From contig JAXMAA010000001.1 in NCBI GenBank assembly GCA_046350615.1, positions 136,480 to 200,479 of the forward strand: DNA of 64,000 nt, read 5' to 3'. Below are positions 27,439-63,543 of the stretch, piece after piece. The notes under the pieces are model-generated. The model saw nothing but the letters and a program-made list of their open reading frames with translations, was not told the DNA's origin and searched no databases. Each line of letters starts with the position of its first letter. Position 1 is the stretch's first letter. A program made the translations under genes and the position numbers. Source of the DNA: Candidatus Saccharimonadales bacterium (GTDB lineage: Bacteria > Patescibacteriota > Saccharimonadia > Saccharimonadales > UBA7683).

Positions 27439-27589
27439 AGATATATGTTGTTTTTTAAGCAACATATATCCTGATCGATTCTTATAACGTTCTTTTAAAT
27501 TGAACGTGTGATCGTAATGATACACACAAATAACTGGTCAAACGTTCTCTTGTCTTCATTCGCTAAGGCGAATTCAAACAAGAGAAGCA

Positions 27590-30915
<3,326 letters not shown>

Positions 30916-31746
30916 GGTTTGACTAGTTATTAGTGATTACCAATAACTTGCCGTTGTCCAACTTAAAAGACCAACTAGATTGTTAATGATACTAACTCCA
31001 GATATGATATCTCGCATGAACTTGAGTTCAAATGTAGTCGTTGATTGCTGTCATCCTGAACTTGTTTCAGGATCTAATCAATTTCTCATCTGAACCTGCA
31101 GAGCTAGACAAGTGTATCAAGTAGAGCTTGTTGCAAAGTACGAAGCGCCTCGCAACTCTTTTTGGTAATAAAAAAGCTCTGATGAGATTGTTCACTAATT
31201 GTGGCATATAATCGCCAGAGGTTTCAACTCCTGAAATATCTGTTTCTGCATATCAAAATAGTATCAAATCACTCACCTGGTAACAGTATATCCATATTTG
31301 ATGTAATCAACAACGCTTATGGTTAATTTAATCTGTTAATATGACTTGCCTCCGCTTTTCAACAATGCTATATGTTTTGAGTTTGAACTGAAATGCTAGC
31401 AAAGAGGTTAATAACAGCCCTAGTGGATCACGAACACTGCTAGTGCAGATTAGCGCGCGTTCTGCCCAAGCCATCCTAACCAGTGCTTATTATCATGTAT
31501 AAGGATACTTTTTGCGCTCACCGAAAGCTTCAGTAATTTTCAGTTAAGCTATACCTACGAAAACTTTTCCATTAAATGTAACCAAAAGTTTTCCATAATA
31601 TTAGGATGTATATACCTTATTTCAAATTGATCATGGTGGCTTACTTTGATTAGCCCGGCATCAAGTAAGTTTTGTTCAAATACATTCATACTGTCAAAAG
31701 ATCATAGATTAAATTAATAAAGCAACAAAAAGAATCCTTTCAAATA

Positions 31747-42314: not shown

Positions 42315-42444
42315 ACTGGCTCACACACCAAAACGCTCGGTCGCTATCTTCACAAAAAATGAGGTTGAACAGAGCTCGATCCCCCATTCACAGGGATGTC
42401 ACGCAAGTGTAGATTCCGAGGTACGCATATAGACGGCGCTATCC

Positions 42445-46806: not shown

Positions 46807-46854
46807 CGTCATTCCCGTACTCAATCGGTGTCAAGCATGAACTCTGGCGAGAAT
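46807..46854 (+). repeat. Long variant of the CGTCAT(T/C)C...GAATCCAG element, interrupted by the IS
   Basis: cgtcattcccgtactcaatcgg...ggcgagaat is followed by the IS, and ccag resumes at 47961. Confidence 0.4.
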
Positions 46855-47956
46855 CCGTATTAACCGCATAATTTCGGTTGACCCTCACTTGCACTGCTCA
46901 CGACCTGCCATCTGTAAAAAGGGCTGGATAATCATGGGTGGCTGTGCTTTTCTGGTGTATGGAAATACGACAACAAAAAAGCACCTGCTGCAGCGCCCGT
47001 GTGCGACGCTACGGTGGCAAACGAAGACAATGTGCCGCCTGTAAACAAACCTGGAGAGTATACCCTGCAAAACGAGGTCCAAAAAAGAGGCGGCCAGATG
47101 TACATCTACTTGAGCTGTACCGGTGTAACTGTATTGGGTCGCTTGCTGCTCATGCTCAGCGCACAAGCTACACACCGTCTACCATCCAGCGAAGGGTCGT
47201 TTCTGCTCGGGAAAGTGTCGTTCGTGCTGCCGCCAAAGAGTCTATGACCTGCGTAGAGCCTCATATCCTTCTTGCAGATGCACTGCATCAAAAGATAGGT
47301 GCGGTGCAGTACGTTACATATCTCATTCTCGTACGCCCGCTCCGGAGTAATCGGGCTGCAGTGTGCGCCACCACAACGGCTCGAGGTGCTGAAACCGGCA
47401 TTGGGTGGCAAAGAGCACTCTCGCATGTTCCCTCAGAGATGCTTGCTCAAACAAGAGCACTCGTCAGCGATGGACATCGGGGGCTCCTACGTATTGCGAG
47501 GCAGCGAGGCTGGGTGCAGCAACGATGCTGCTTTCATGTACTGAAAGAGCTCAACAAGAACATGCGACTATGGCACCGAGCTACACCCGAGACATACTGG
47601 GTGCATGAACTGGTGCATATAGTACTGGAGTCACCCGATGACGAGCGGGTCTCTAGGGTGCTCGGGCTATTGAGTGATTATGCGATGCAAACACCCAGAA
47701 CCGAAGTTGCAAGTATTTTACGAGGATTAGTACAAAACTTCCGAGACTACCGAAGCTATCTATACTATCCAGAGTTGCATTTACCCGCAACCAACAATAG
47801 CTGTGAATCTAGCTTTCGAAGAGTACGGGCACTGCAAAACAAGGCTCGAGGTTGGCGTACACCAACTGCCTACGAAGGATGGGTTACCTATGTACTGCGC
47901 AACTCAAAGGACGTACAGTGCTTAGAGGGTCAACCGAAATTATGCGGTTAATACGG
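46855..47956 (+). mobile_element. Insertion sequence (about 1.1 kb) with perfect 32-bp terminal inverted repeats
   Basis: Left end ccgtattaaccgcataatttcggttgaccctc (46855-46886) is the exact reverse complement of gagggtcaaccgaaattatgcggttaatacgg (47925-47956). GAAT flanks both ends. A single transposase ORF ends inside the right IR. Confidence 0.9.
46938..47951 (+). CDS. DDE transposase with an N-terminal zinc ribbon (IS256/Mutator-like catalytic motifs)
   Basis: 337 aa. CCSARVRRYGG..CAACKQTW; LLADALHQK (DAxxxK), LVSDGHRGL (SDxHxGL), ATNNSCESSFRRVR (TNxxES). Confidence 0.75.
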   Translation: MAVLFWCMEIRQQKSTCCSARVRRYGGKRRQCAACKQTWRVYPAKRGPKKRRPDVHLLELYRCNCIGSLAAHAQRTSYTPSTIQRRVVSARESVVRAAAKESMTCVEPHILLADALHQKIGAVQYVTYLILVRPLRSNRAAVCATTTARGAETGIGWQRALSHVPSEMLAQTRALVSDGHRGLLRIARQRGWVQQRCCFHVLKELNKNMRLWHRATPETYWVHELVHIVLESPDDERVSRVLGLLSDYAMQTPRTEVASILRGLVQNFRDYRSYLYYPELHLPATNNSCESSFRRVRALQNKARGWRTPTAYEGWVTYVLRNSKDVQCLEGQPKLCG

Positions 47957-47974
47957 GAATCCAGTTCAGATACT

Positions 47975-48002
47975 AGATCCCGGATCAAGTCCGGGATGAC
48001 AC
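47975..48002 (-). repeat. Member of the CGTCATCC...GGATC hairpin repeat family
   Basis: The reverse complement is gtgtcatcccggacttgatccgggatct. Confidence 0.5.
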
Positions 48003-48484
48003 CGGTGAGTTTTGAGAGTCAGTTATTTATAGATTGACCAAATTTTTCGCCAAACTCAACATGTCAAAGCCAATGAGTTGGTGATTTATGATTCAGGCAC
48101 ATTTTTAAGCCGAACCCAACACCGACTGCAGCGCGCTCAAGTTAATTGCTACTTCAGTTTAATACCAATCACCGCTAGGCAGCTTGTATGCTTCGATTAA
48201 AAAGATGTTCATAAAGATAGTAGATAAGAAATCGGAGTATGGCCAAATACCGTGCAACTATACATTGGGGTTTGCCCTATAAAGAAGCTATTGATCACGC
48301 CCCGCACATTGACGCCCCGATGCACCGCAAAATGCACACCGAGCTACCATAGCACTAACATTTTTCGTAGCTTGGAGTCAGTGACTGCGTAGCAAATAAT
48401 TCTATGGCAAGACATTCTCAGGAATTGCTAGAAGCTAAGTAGATTATATGTGGATAACTACTTTTAAATTTCTTTCATTTTTGT

Positions 48485-57834: not shown

Positions 57835-58734
57835 TTAGTGAGTAGTGGTTGGCGATGAATTGGCAACAAAGCGTACTGCCTCTTGTGCAAGCTCTTCAGG
57901 ATTATCAAACCAGGAAATATCTTTATTACGTTTAAACCAGGTACGCTGTCGCTTGGCCAAGCCTAGATCAGCATGCATAAACGCTATTTTGGCTTCTTGG
58001 ACTGAGATCTCACCCTCCATGGCTTTTCTTGCTGCGTTATAACCGGGAGTTTTAAAGGCCTCAAGCTCTGATCCGTAATACTCGTAAAGCTTTGTGACTT
58101 CATCAAGAAAGCCACGCTGAAACATCTCTTCAATACGTTTTTCGATCCGAGTTTTGAGTACTTCTCGATCTAGTTTTAGCCCCAAAATAATTGCATTGCT
58201 TCGCATTTTTGTATTTTCAGGCACCTCACCATCACGCTCAATCGCTCGAATAACGTGCCGTCTGTTTTTTGTGTTCAACTTCGATGTATCAATATTTTTT
58301 GTATGCAACAGTGTTGTTAATTCTTCATCATTCATCTGTAATAATTGTGTTCGGTATGTCTCATCCGGCCTATCTTTAAATTGAAAATTATACAACAAGG
58401 CGTCTACATACAGCCCCGTACCACCAACAATTATTGGTATTTTCCCTCGCCCACCAATATCCTGAATACATTTTTCAGCTTGTCGCTTAAACTCCGCGGC
58501 ACTAAACTTTTCGTTTGGCTCAACAATATCAATCAAATGATGTGGCACTAATTTTTGCTCAGACAAAGTTGGCTTGGCAGTTCCAATATCCATCTTTTTA
58601 TAGACTGTTCGAGAGTCTGCACAAATAATTTCTCCATCCACCAATTGGGCAATTTTTATGCCTACTGCGGTTTTTCCACTCGCAGTTTCACCGACAATGA
58701 AGATTAAAGGAGTTTTGCTTGATGTGGATCCCAT
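57835..58734 (-). CDS. miaA: tRNA dimethylallyltransferase
   Basis: 299 aa. IVGETASGKTAVGI, ICADSRTVYKKMDIGTAKP, VGGTGLY. Confidence 0.92.
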   Translation of the reverse strand: MGSTSSKTPLIFIVGETASGKTAVGIKIAQLVDGEIICADSRTVYKKMDIGTAKPTLSEQKLVPHHLIDIVEPNEKFSAAEFKRQAEKCIQDIGGRGKIPIIVGGTGLYVDALLYNFQFKDRPDETYRTQLLQMNDEELTTLLHTKNIDTSKLNTKNRRHVIRAIERDGEVPENTKMRSNAIILGLKLDREVLKTRIEKRIEEMFQRGFLDEVTKLYEYYGSELEAFKTPGYNAARKAMEGEISVQEAKIAFMHADLGLAKRQRTWFKRNKDISWFDNPEELAQEAVRFVANSSPTTTH

Positions 58735-59042
58735 AATAATTCGCCTACTCGAACATAGTATTCATCATGCTCGCCCAGTACCTCAACCCCTTCTGCTTCC
58801 AGATGCTGTTTATGCGTGGCTCGACCACCAGGATATCCAGCAGCCAACCCACCCTTTTTATTGACAACTCTTTGCCAAGGTAGCTCTGGATCACCAAAAT
58901 GTGCAATTCCACCAACAATTCGGGCAGCCCTCGCATTTCCAGCTAGTGCCGCAAGCTGCCCGTAGGTCATAACTCTGCCTTTCGGAATTTGTGCCACAAA
59001 CGTGTATACCCGCTCTTTAAACTGAACCTCATTGCTAGTCAT
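58704..59042 (-). CDS. Alkyltransferase-like (ATL) protein: MGMT DNA-binding fold with Trp in place of the active-site Cys
   Basis: 112 aa. VMTYGQLAALAGNARAARIVGG...PWQRVV (the canonical motif is PCHRV). Confidence 0.75.
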   Translation of the reverse strand: MTSNEVQFKERVYTFVAQIPKGRVMTYGQLAALAGNARAARIVGGIAHFGDPELPWQRVVNKKGGLAAGYPGGRATHKQHLEAEGVEVLGEHDEYYVRVGELLWDPHQAKLL

Positions 59043-59073
59043 AGGTACTGATTATAAATCAGATGTTATACTT

Positions 59074-59101
59074 CGTCATCCCAGGGAAGGCTGGGATCCA
59101 G
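59074..59101 (+). repeat. Hairpin repeat CGTCATCCCAG-GGAAGG-CTGGGATCCAG (flank of the GIY-YIG gene)
   Basis: cgtcatcccagggaaggctgggatccag. The inverted partner lies at 59425-59454. Confidence 0.8.
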
Positions 59102-59110
59102 AAAATACTA

Positions 59111-59404
59111 TCAGTTAAAATCGAGGCTTAAGTCTCTCCAGCCAGCATTCTCTTTCTCGATAAGCTTAATCTTCCAATCTCGTTTCCAAGCTTTCATGTT
59201 CTTTTCACTTGTGATTGCTGATTCGATGTTGTCATGTGATTCAAAATAAACTAACCGGCTAACGTTATATTTTTTAGTAAAACCATCTGATTCTTTCGAC
59301 TGATGCTGGCTAGTTCTTCTTACAATGTCACGTGTTACTCCTATATACAAAGTGCCGTTTTTACTACTTGCAAGAATATAGACATAGTATTGACGAAGTT
59401 TCAT
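59111..59404 (-). CDS. GIY-YIG (URI) nuclease-domain protein
   Basis: MKLRQYYVYILASSKNGTLYIGVTRDIVRRTSQHQ...; about 97 aa. The track ORF extends to 59467, but that extension reads through the flanking repeat. Confidence 0.85.
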   Translation of the reverse strand: MKLRQYYVYILASSKNGTLYIGVTRDIVRRTSQHQSKESDGFTKKYNVSRLVYFESHDNIESAITSEKNMKAWKRDWKIKLIEKENAGWRDLSLDFN

Positions 59405-59424
59405 TAAACCAATTATAAGACATT

Positions 59425-59454
59425 CTGGATCCCAGCCTTCGCTGGGATAACGAG
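59425..59454 (-). repeat. Inverted copy of the hairpin repeat (other flank of the GIY-YIG gene)
   Basis: Its reverse complement ctcgttatcccagcgaaggctgggatccag matches 59073-59101 at 26 of 29 positions. Confidence 0.8.
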
Positions 59455-59476
59455 CCAGGAGAGTCAAGCTGAGGAG

Positions 59477-61336
59477 CTAGAGGGAAGAGTTCTGGACGCG
59501 GCCTTTGGCTTCGTTTGCAATACTAGTGATGAAATTTTCCAGCGGGTAGGTTTTTTCTTCGCGGTTTTCAACAGCAAGATCACTGCGCACCCGGGGTGAA
59601 AGTTGCTTAGTTTCAAGTTCTTTTTCGCCCACAACTACTGTATAGGGCACTTTCATCAGTTCAGCATTACGAATTTTTTTACCAACCGATTCATTCGATC
59701 GATCAATCTGAACTCGAATATCATTTTCTTTAGCGATTGTTGTAATTTCATCAACAAAACTGTCAATTTCTGGTGAGTCTTTTACTTGGATTATCCGTAA
59801 CTGTTCTGGGGCTAACCAAACTGGGAACCGTCCAGCGGAGTGTTCGATATATACACTAAGGAACCGCTCGAGCGAGCCCATAATTGCAGCGTGTATCATC
59901 ACAACTCGCTCAGCATCCCCTGCTTCATTAGTACAGGTTAAATCAAAGCCTTCTGGCTGATTAAAGTCTAGCTGGATGGTTGCAACCTGGTGCTCTCTAC
60001 CAATCGCATCTTTGGCCATGAAATCTATTTTTGGACCATAAAACGCCGCTTCACCGACACCCGGCAAGTAATCTTCGCCTACTTTGCTTTTAATGATTGA
60101 AAGTAGTTGCTCTTCGGACTGCACCCATTTAGATTCATCACCAGCATACGAACCCATATCTTCCGGATCATGTGTAGAAAATCTGACTTTCAGGTCAGCA
60201 AAGCCGAGCGCTCCGTAGAACCTATCAATGATATCCCAGATTTTTAAGGCCTCTTCTTCTATCTGTGTAGTTCGACAGAAGACATGTGCGTCATCTTGCG
60301 TAATACAACGTACGCGCGACAAACCTGAGAGCTCGCCACTCTGTTCGTCACGATACACAAATGCCGTTTCTCGGTATCTGATTGGCAAGTCACGATAGGA
60401 TCGTGGTTGACTCGCATAAATTTGGGTGTGCATCGGGCAGCTCATTGGCTTCATGGCAAACTCGTGACCTTCACGAGTTTCTATCTTGAATAATTCGTCA
60501 GCAAACTTTGCCCAGTGACCACTGGCTTCAAACAGATCTTTTTTTGTAATATGCGGCGACGTCACCTCTTGATAACCATATTCATCACGCATTTCCTGTA
60601 CAAAGTCATTAAGGCCAGCTCTCAGTAGTGTTCCCCTCGGTGACCAAAGAGTTAGCCCGCCACCGATCATGTCAGAGAACGTAAACAGATCTAAGTCTTT
60701 ACCCAGTCTACGATGATCACGCTTTTTAGCCTCTTCTAGCATCTGCAGATGATTATTAAGCTCTTCTTTAGTGGCAAACGCCACCCCATAAAGCCGCTGC
60801 ATCTGCGGATTGCCCTCTTTACCCCGCCAGTAGGCTCCAGCTACTCTCATAAGCTTAAATGCACCCACTTTGCCGGTACTCTCAACATGTGGACCGCGGC
60901 ATAAATCCGTAAACTCGCCATTAGTATAGAACGATACACTCTCAACCGCCGCATCACCTTTGGTAATAGTACCGAGCTCATCCATATCGAGATCCTTGGC
61001 GACAGTAGTGCCTGCACGCTTGAGATCGTTCAGGAGCTCTTCTTTATACGGCTGTTGAGCAGCCCTTGCCCAGTCAATAGCCTCGTCGATAGACTTTTCA
61101 GATCGTTCAAACGGCTGGTTGGCGTTAACAACTTTCCTCATCTGTTCTTCAATCTTCTTGAAGTCATCAGTTGAGATTGTCACGCCTGGAATATCAATAT
61201 CGTAATAAAATCCATTTTCTACAACCGGCCCAACTCCGAGTTTTGCCTCTGGCCACAAGGTTGTTACAGCAGTCGCCATGATATGCGCCAAACTATGCCG
61301 CATCGCATGAAGTTGCTCATTATTTTGATCTGCCAT
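59477..61336 (-). CDS. thrS: Threonyl-tRNA synthetase (no N-terminal TGS domain)
   Basis: 619 aa. HSLAHIM (editing domain), class II motifs (FRDEQSGELSGLSRVR, GPKIDF...), anticodon-binding C-terminus. Confidence 0.95.
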   Translation of the reverse strand: MADQNNEQLHAMRHSLAHIMATAVTTLWPEAKLGVGPVVENGFYYDIDIPGVTISTDDFKKIEEQMRKVVNANQPFERSEKSIDEAIDWARAAQQPYKEELLNDLKRAGTTVAKDLDMDELGTITKGDAAVESVSFYTNGEFTDLCRGPHVESTGKVGAFKLMRVAGAYWRGKEGNPQMQRLYGVAFATKEELNNHLQMLEEAKKRDHRRLGKDLDLFTFSDMIGGGLTLWSPRGTLLRAGLNDFVQEMRDEYGYQEVTSPHITKKDLFEASGHWAKFADELFKIETREGHEFAMKPMSCPMHTQIYASQPRSYRDLPIRYRETAFVYRDEQSGELSGLSRVRCITQDDAHVFCRTTQIEEEALKIWDIIDRFYGALGFADLKVRFSTHDPEDMGSYAGDESKWVQSEEQLLSIIKSKVGEDYLPGVGEAAFYGPKIDFMAKDAIGREHQVATIQLDFNQPEGFDLTCTNEAGDAERVVMIHAAIMGSLERFLSVYIEHSAGRFPVWLAPEQLRIIQVKDSPEIDSFVDEITTIAKENDIRVQIDRSNESVGKKIRNAELMKVPYTVVVGEKELETKQLSPRVRSDLAVENREEKTYPLENFITSIANEAKGRVQNSSL

Positions 61337-63431: not shown

Positions 63432-63511
63432 ATCTATAGATAACAGATTACAGCAAATAGATAGGAGATACCACCCGGGCTGCGAATTATTTAATCCAAA
63501 TCCTGACCCTC

Positions 63512-63543
63512 CGTCATCCTGAGTGAGGTTGAAGGATCCACTG
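63512..63543 (+). repeat. Member of the CGTCATCC...GGATCCA hairpin repeat family
   Basis: cgtcatcctgagtgaggttgaaggatccactg, upstream of tgt. Confidence 0.5.

Follow-up and report, generated by a model that had tools for sequence, protein, structure and literature searches.

We analysed a 64-kb window, the whole stretch of 64,000 nt from a Candidatus Saccharimonadales metagenome-assembled genome (Saccharibacteria, Patescibacteria), in which a gene for a 97-amino-acid (aa) GIY-YIG protein lies between thrS and atl and is bracketed by two inverted hairpin repeats. The similarity of the protein to SsnA and of the hairpins to the Ssn-related motif (SRM) makes it highly probable that the locus is an Ssn system, composed of an ssnA gene and its cognate SRM hairpins, and that it belongs to a published family and represents no new kind of element. 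In addition, comparison of related loci reveals that SRM-ssnA-SRM is gained, lost or inverted as a discrete unit.

The Ssn family has been characterised in Neisseria (Chenal et al. 2025, Nat Commun 16:2388; PMC11893778). According to that study, ssnA is the one gene associated with the repeat NTS across bacteria and encodes a 94-aa single-domain GIY-YIG protein (NMV_0044/NMB0047 in N. meningitidis), assigned to cd10448 (GIY-YIG_unchar_3). The dRS3 repeats include NTS (CGTCATTCCCGCGMAVGCGGGAATCYRG) as an oriented subset, and the SRM consensus reads CGTCAT-stem-loop-stem-ATCCAG. Four SsnA homologs have been shown to bind the hairpin only as single-stranded DNA (ssDNA) and to cleave, strand-specifically, a few nucleotides upstream of it. 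Mutation of Y6, Y17 or E64 of N. meningitidis SsnA abolishes cleavage, and in Neisseria cleavage is governed by the three bases before the palindrome (GTC). In N. meningitidis the integration of SRM-bearing transforming DNA is reduced. Across ssnA homologs, an SRM lies nearby in 71% and on both sides in 42%.

The 97-aa open reading frame (ORF) matches Pfam GIY-YIG (PF01541) over residues 5-79 with an E value of 1.9e-15 and contains no further domain. BLASTP aligns it with the 94-aa N. gonorrhoeae SsnA ortholog over residues 5-96 (92/97) at 55% identity (E 2e-38), which exceeds the level used to define Ssn homologs in PMC11893778 (E<1e-10 and >=75% coverage against Neisseria SsnA). The Neisseria reference is a 94-aa ORF read from NZ_CP119140.1, a locus reached by tblastn of a plasmid collection; its length and the residues Y6, Y17 and E64 identified it as SsnA. 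PLSDB lists NZ_CP119140.1 and NZ_CP119142.1 as plasmids, although both are N. gonorrhoeae chromosomes of 2.17 Mb. Specifically, residues Y9, Y20 and E67 of the window protein correspond to N. meningitidis Y6, Y17 and E64 and are invariant in an alignment of 37 sequences (alignment A2), as are R30, H34 and N86. The closest PDB match by sequence, UPF0213 protein BH0048 (1ZG2), is weak (E 6.6e-5); the similarity to SsnA is far stronger, which argues that the window protein is not of the YhbQ type. NCBIfam holds no model specific to the 97-aa protein, and the group I intron endonuclease model TIGR01453 reaches 17.7 bits against a cut-off of 56. The protein family is very large and tightly conserved, with at least 8,000 candidates of 60-77% identity among the matches listed.

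The two arms around ssnA carry the hairpin motif of the family. A repeat search of the window finds inverted arms at 59073-59103 and 59423-59453, each of 31 nt, 94% complementary and 319 nt apart, and the 24-nt core of the arms, ATCCCAGSGAAGGCTGGGATCCAG, has exactly two copies in the window, as compared with 0.00 expected from 100 shuffles. Folded as ssDNA, the left arm forms a 7-bp stem (−5.6 kcal/mol) and the right arm an 8-bp stem (−10.4 kcal/mol, z −3.9). The arm sequence can be written as (C/T)TCGT(C/T)ATCCCAG-loop-CTGGGATCCAG, which is the SRM motif with a covarying stem. The repeat search, Pfam and folding bear out the first-pass annotation, made from the sequence alone, which had described a 97-aa GIY-YIG gene between atl and thrS with inverted repeats on either side, each a hairpin in itself. 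Its inverted pairing of the arms, counted as 26 matches in 29 positions, also holds, with the figures corrected: the left 30-letter string starts at 59072 rather than 59073, and the 30-mers match at 27 of 30 positions.

Further SRMs are dispersed in the window (Table 1). The published SRM pattern, HGTCWYN(0-2)YYVSBRHN(0-5)WNVSBRGN(0-2)RNCYNB, has two matches, the left arm and 47973-48001, versus 0.26 expected per shuffled window; the right arm misses it solely at the GTC triplet, which reads GTT there. A covariance model, built from 122 SRMs of unrelated metagenome loci and run over the window with filters off, gives five matches with E<=0.04 in 64 kb, among them the 5′ arm with 33.1 bits (E 9e-7) and the 3′ arm with 31.1 bits. 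Both flanks of ssnA (within 500 bp) carry an SRM, the 3′ one by the pattern and the 5′ one by the covariance model. The other three covariance-model matches, together with a motif split by an insertion sequence (IS), agree with the earlier description of related hairpins at four other sites, one of them interrupted by an IS. An exact search for the CCCAG stem yielded only the two cassette arms, because the other copies have covarying stems. Two decayed look-alikes, at 42378-42398 and 20016-40, fall below covariance-model scoring.

The split SRM and the SRM at 47971-48003 form a gene-less convergent doublet, with stems 8 nt apart and in the orientation of the cassette arms. The IS either created an 8-bp duplication GRGAATCC (GAGAATCC/GGGAATCC) or entered the loop of the split SRM. 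Among transposase models, the ORF of the IS (46938-47951, 337 aa) has only weak matches, to Pfam Transposase_mut (E 2.3e-5) and to NCBIfam IS256 (E 1.3e-9, under the cut-off of that family), and the IS256-like element is no part of the Ssn system itself. We also observed that a 21-nt hairpin with SRM flanks, ATCCTGAACTTGTTTCAGGAT, is identical at 31053-31073 of the window and at positions 946-966 of the Saccharibacteria locus L033. The two places are non-homologous, being the tRNA-23S spacer in the window and a site just downstream of tgt in L033.

The association of SRMs with ssnA extends to homologous loci. We surveyed the layout of 80 metagenome loci with 52-65%-identical SsnA homologs, 69 of which had enough flanking sequence, using a flank-anchored hairpin detector (GTC, a stem of >=7 bp, then C). 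The detector found 196 relaxed matches in the 80 loci as compared with 10 in the reversed sequences. An SRM lies within 150 bp of the gene in 55 of the 69 loci, and the window layout, a 5′ sense SRM, the gene and a 3′ antisense SRM, occurs in 29 (42%), the opposite layout in one. In loci with the window layout, the sense motif typically lies ~21 nt upstream of the match and the antisense motif ~9 nt past the stop codon. SRM stems vary between loci by compensatory changes (for example ATTCCCGC, ATTCCTGC, ATTCTGGC, ATCCCAGC and ATACCGGC), while GTC and the post-stem C are fixed; the SRM sequences of alignment A3 were chosen for pairing. Within Saccharibacteria, the covariance model detects SRMs (E<0.01) in every tested ssnA-bearing locus (L081, L084, L088, L173 and L176), in two of 80 ssnA-free loci (L018 and L033) and in none of the other 78 (~910 kb). 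SRMs are thus essentially confined to ssnA-carrying loci.

Convergent doublets are the commonest short-range SRM pair (17 versus 5-7 for the other orientations). Gene-less convergent doublets with 2-21-nt spacers lie near ssnA genes at L088:1061-1142, L088:2648-2723, L173:311-383 and L084:10328-10390, and a ~100-bp doublet unit comprising two different SRM types is present seven times in one metagenome locus (L156:64-2657). These doublets resemble REPINs, BIMEs and the Neisseria NIMEs. As in the dRS3/NIME repeats of Neisseria, the SRM core is the dRS3 palindrome ATTCCC-N8-GGGAAT or a covarying variant, repeats are paired around short spacers and mobile elements have inserted at repeats, the IS256-like element being the case in the window; the window differs in phylum, in its stems (ATCCCAG, ATCCCGG, ATCCTGA) and in having far fewer copies.

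By homology, SsnA of the window would bind the hairpin CGTCAT-stem-loop-stem-ATCCAG in ssDNA only and would cleave the SRM-bearing strand on the 5′ side of the motif, a few nucleotides away from it. The flanking SRMs are convergent, the sense strand pointing into ssnA from both sides. Cleavage is accordingly predicted immediately beyond the two ends of the cassette, once per strand, at ~59068-59071 (plus strand) and ~59456-59460 (minus strand). The 5′ arm, in which GTT replaces the cleavage-governing GTC, may still be bound yet cleaved inefficiently. The other SRMs of the window, three intact and one IS-split, would serve as additional target sites. By analogy with N. meningitidis, the cellular role is probably to cut SRM-bearing ssDNA, such as the DNA of natural transformation, and so to modulate recombination. 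Saccharibacteria are naturally competent (PMC10187176), which makes imported ssDNA a plausible substrate of SsnA and a role in ssDNA restriction plausible.

The assignment to the Ssn family rests on close likeness, since the window protein is likewise a single-domain GIY-YIG protein of ~95 aa with the catalytic Tyr, Tyr and Glu kept, and the same oriented hairpin motif stands on both sides of ssnA and in extra intergenic copies. Several observations weigh against this assignment. Patescibacteria are absent from the text of PMC11893778, whereas the host here is a member of the Saccharibacteria. The SRM density of the window is modest, with five scoring motifs and one IS-split motif in 64 kb, a handful as compared with hundreds per genome. 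The NTS copies nearest to ssnA in N. gonorrhoeae are antisense on the upstream side and sense on the downstream side, a divergent arrangement opposite to the convergent arms of the window, so the convergent layout is not universal. Furthermore, the gene-proximal arm deviates, with GTT for GTC, at a position relevant to cleavage. Finally, the ssDNA endonuclease activity of the window protein is predicted from its homologs of Neisseria and Wolbachia, the enzymes tested, and the putative role in transformation is extrapolated from one species.

Comparison with relatives reveals that the cassette is an insertion in the thrS-atl spacer. On the minus strand, the order is thrS, 22 nt, hairpin, 18 nt, the 97-aa ORF, 7 nt, inverted hairpin, ~29 nt, atl and miaA (the IPP transferase gene), and the cassette has a GC content of 0.36-0.38, slightly lower than the neighbouring DNA. 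The comparison set was the best 80 Saccharibacteria species representatives by ThrS search, each represented by its fetched locus. The order thrS-atl-miaA is found in 75 of them, and no SsnA homolog is encoded in any of the 80 fetched thrS loci. The three closest ThrS relatives found in a large protein database (88%, 86% and 86% identity) likewise have no ssnA at the locus. The thrS-atl spacer is <=65 bp (0-65) in 43 of the 75 loci, and in alignment A1 it measures 434 bp in the window versus 6-12 nt in the genomes of L091, L001 and L033. These tight junctions without ssnA indicate that the window carries an insertion of ~428 bp. The extra DNA comprises the 383-bp cassette and 22 and ~29 unmatched flanking nucleotides. 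Because the relatives with an empty site are at most 88% identical in ThrS, the insertion is not recent. We found no direct repeats beside the arms, and hence no target-site duplication, in either the window or the thrS locus L088 (see below); a search for shared outer flanks between cassettes found none.

In 30 of the 75 loci, a gene of ~200 aa for an NT5C/HAD-type 5′(3′)-deoxyribonucleotidase, not present in the window, stands between thrS and atl, so the junction is variable in more than one way. Loci with this NT5C-type gene include L005 and L007, and also L090 and L092. A promoter-like sequence, ATGACG-17 nt-TATAAT (59051-59079, minus strand), with 10 of 12 consensus matches, runs from the outer end of the 3′ SRM toward the atl start. 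Judged by this consensus match only, the insertion, having split atl from thrS, may have given atl a new promoter.

Both arms accompany every one of the closest SsnA homologs (73-77% identity), which occupy three sites. The first lies between DUF5663 and fmt (homologs P0002 and P0003), the second follows the prepilin peptidase gene pilD in a type IV pilus cluster (P0006 and P0007), and the third, in GCA_040384045.1 (P0008; L088:4965-5324, JAWVHH010000230.1), begins with the base that follows the thrS stop codon and precedes NT5C-atl-miaA. The L088 cassette is 73% identical to that of the window, the two ThrS proteins are 61% identical, and no cassette is found in the nearer relatives of L088 (ThrS up to 77% identical). 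The presence of the cassette after thrS in the distant L088 and not in nearer relatives implies either two insertions in the same short spacer or many clean losses. The two thrS insertions stand 0 nt (L088) and 22 nt (window) after the stop codon, and their stems are ATTCCTGC in L088 versus ATCCCAG in the window. The thrS 3′ end may be a recurrent insertion site.

At the DUF5663-fmt site, the cassette is inverted between two related Saccharibacteria-like contigs (L081:4928-5337 and L173:1292-1674) with colinear flanks, the result either of inversion across the inverted arms or of separate insertions in opposite orientations. Where cassettes share a site, they have diverged to the same extent as the DNA on either side (73% versus 69-79% nucleotide identity), and the events are therefore old and rare. 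The identities among six SsnA proteins are star-like (67-77%), with no grouping by site, which is weak evidence either way on purely vertical inheritance.

These comparisons bear on the suggestion of the first-pass annotation that the locus is a mini mobile cassette. It had asked whether the same inverted repeats flank GIY-YIG copies elsewhere, and both arms are kept in the closest homologs; whether atl-thrS junctions without the cassette exist, and all 75 examined, as well as those of the three closest ThrS relatives, lack it. The two patterns that it had named as telling against a cassette, occupancy of the same site in all relatives and hairpins equally dense away from GIY-YIG genes, are the reverse of what is seen at the 75 empty junctions and in the 80 ssnA-free loci, where only two have SRMs. 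The part of the suggestion that stands is a nuclease gene with terminal inverted repeats that is gained, lost or inverted as a unit. No target-site duplication and no second copy of ssnA were found in the 64-kb window.

Two further interpretations can be built on these data. One is an autonomous mini-transposon, in which the GIY-YIG protein would cut the terminal hairpins and move SRM-ssnA-SRM, with the gene-less doublets as non-autonomous derivatives, a GIY-YIG analogue of RAYT/REPIN. Consistent with this reading, the terminal inverted repeats have the conserved GTC outermost, the sites are empty in all relatives examined, SRM-ssnA-SRM occupies three sites among the closest homologs with SsnA identities that show no clustering by site, L081 and L173 carry the cassette in opposite orientations, convergent doublets predominate and reach seven copies in one locus, and an identical hairpin stands at non-homologous places in the window and L033. 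The analogy with IS elements and RAYTs was itself raised in PMC11893778. The likeness to RAYT/REPIN is detailed: a single-copy gene between inverted short hairpin repeats, a dispersed repeat that often forms inverted doublets (46807..47964 with 47971-48003 in the window, and those of L088, L173, L084 and L156), and recognition of hairpins in ssDNA.

Against the mini-transposon stand the missing target-site duplication at the window junction and at L088, the single ssnA copy of the window and the age and rarity of the events implied by cassettes as diverged as their flanks. Moreover, the cuts predicted for SsnA would be made outside the unit, in opposite strands, unlike both the RAYT/REPIN system and the same-strand excision of IS200/IS605. 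The sole ORF of the cassette is a GIY-YIG hydrolase (Pfam finds GIY-YIG only), with no recognised transposase or recombinase chemistry, rather than an HUH/Y1 transposase with a covalent intermediate. GIY-YIG nucleases hydrolyse DNA and are not known to catalyse strand transfer, which counts against the mini-transposon as well. A query with the single protein found no close relative in viral contigs. On balance, we consider an autonomous mini-transposon possible but rather unlikely.

The other is a new class of mobile element, in which a hydrolytic GIY-YIG ssDNA endonuclease together with host repair or replication would propagate a hairpin-bounded cassette, the doublets being non-autonomous, as REPINs are for RAYTs, and certain intergenic sites being preferred. 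Hints of site preference are that the thrS 3′ end is occupied in two distant Saccharibacteria lineages and that DUF5663-fmt is occupied in both orientations. We put this forward tentatively, as a speculation with the odds against it. If it were true, the naturally competent, genome-reduced Patescibacteria would offer a tractable host.

It is very unlikely that ssnA is a free-standing GIY-YIG homing endonuclease of the I-TevI or SegA type, which would cut double-stranded DNA (dsDNA) at the thrS 3′ end and enter by repair-mediated copying, with incidental hairpins. A GIY-YIG domain in a small selfish-looking gene between conserved genes is the common ground, and the L088 cassette right after the thrS stop, with closer relatives lacking it, fits such a target. 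But the 97-aa protein is a bare catalytic domain without a DNA-binding domain, its characterised relatives are ssDNA-specific and leave dsDNA uncut (PMC11893778), and the gene is flanked by hairpins and lies outside any phage or intron. Equally close homologs occupy the DUF5663-fmt and pilD sites, and the two thrS insertions differ in exact position and stem sequence. Still less credible, and already disfavoured, is the view that the hairpins are ordinary terminators or REP-like stabilisers of mRNA beside an unrelated YhbQ/UPF0213- or Slx1-type housekeeping repair nuclease: the hairpins are intergenic, two decayed copies stand between convergent genes and the protein weakly matches BH0048, but no T-tract follows the hairpins, a terminator scan found no terminator-like site, the stems covary between asymmetric flanks (GTC...C) that are conserved across phyla, the hairpins track ssnA in the counts given above, and the similarity to SsnA far exceeds that to UPF0213.

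For the Ssn system, which we prefer as the reading of this locus, the present data have consequences at two levels. The annotation of the locus can change from "GIY-YIG nuclease family protein" to an Ssn-type ssDNA endonuclease with cognate SRM hairpins, and the Ssn family now reaches Saccharibacteria. In addition, the comparative data, namely empty sites, an inverted cassette, recurrent intergenic sites, gene-less convergent doublets and SRMs restricted to ssnA loci, bear on the question posed in PMC11893778 of whether NTS-ssnA-NTS is or was mobile, without settling it.

Table 1. Positions of the ssnA cassette, its neighbours and the dispersed SRMs in the 64-kb window
Feature	Position	Strand	Basis or remarks
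ssnA, 97-aa single-domain GIY-YIG protein, predicted site-specific ssDNA endonuclease	59111-59404	minus	Pfam, BLASTP and alignment
5′ gene-proximal SRM hairpin CTCGTTATCCCAGCGAAGGCTGGGATCCAGAA, sense on coding strand	59423-59454	minus	8-bp stem, GAAG loop
3′ SRM hairpin TTCGTCATCCCAGGGAAGGCTGGGATCCAGAA, sense on strand opposite ssnA	59072-59103	plus	7-bp stem; loop-closing pair G.G
Whole thrS-atl intergenic segment	59043-59476		434 bp; ~428 bp extra versus relatives (alignment A1, gap statistics of 75 loci)
atl, Atl/MGMT DNA-binding-domain gene	58704-59042	minus	
thrS	59477-61336	minus	
Dispersed SRM TGTCATCCCGGACTTGATCCGGGATCTAG, right member of convergent SRM doublet	47971-48003	minus	33.6 bits, E 6e-7; pattern match; −8.4 kcal/mol
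Dispersed SRM in tRNA-23S rRNA spacer, antisense to rRNA	31047-31079	plus	21 bits, E 0.002; −6.1 kcal/mol, z −3.0
Weak or decaying SRM, 5′ end of tgt	63510-63543	plus	16.4 bits, E 0.04; poor hairpin
SRM 5′ half CCGTCATTCCCGTA, cut off from 3′ half by IS	46807-46820	plus	read from sequence
SRM 3′ half ACGGGAATCCAG, 8 nt from stem of next SRM	47953-47964	plus	read from sequence
IS256-like insertion sequence, 1,102 bp, in or against SRM	46855-47956	plus	32-nt perfect terminal inverted repeats

An Rfam scan of the whole window at the gathering threshold returned only rRNA, tRNA and RNase P, with none at the hairpins. The 23S rRNA match (27588-30908, minus strand) spans 3,321 nt, as compared with a model of 2,925 positions, and so has ~400 nt extra. 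Intervening sequences and introns are common in the rRNA genes of the candidate phyla radiation, and the ~400 extra nucleotides may be an intervening sequence or an intron.

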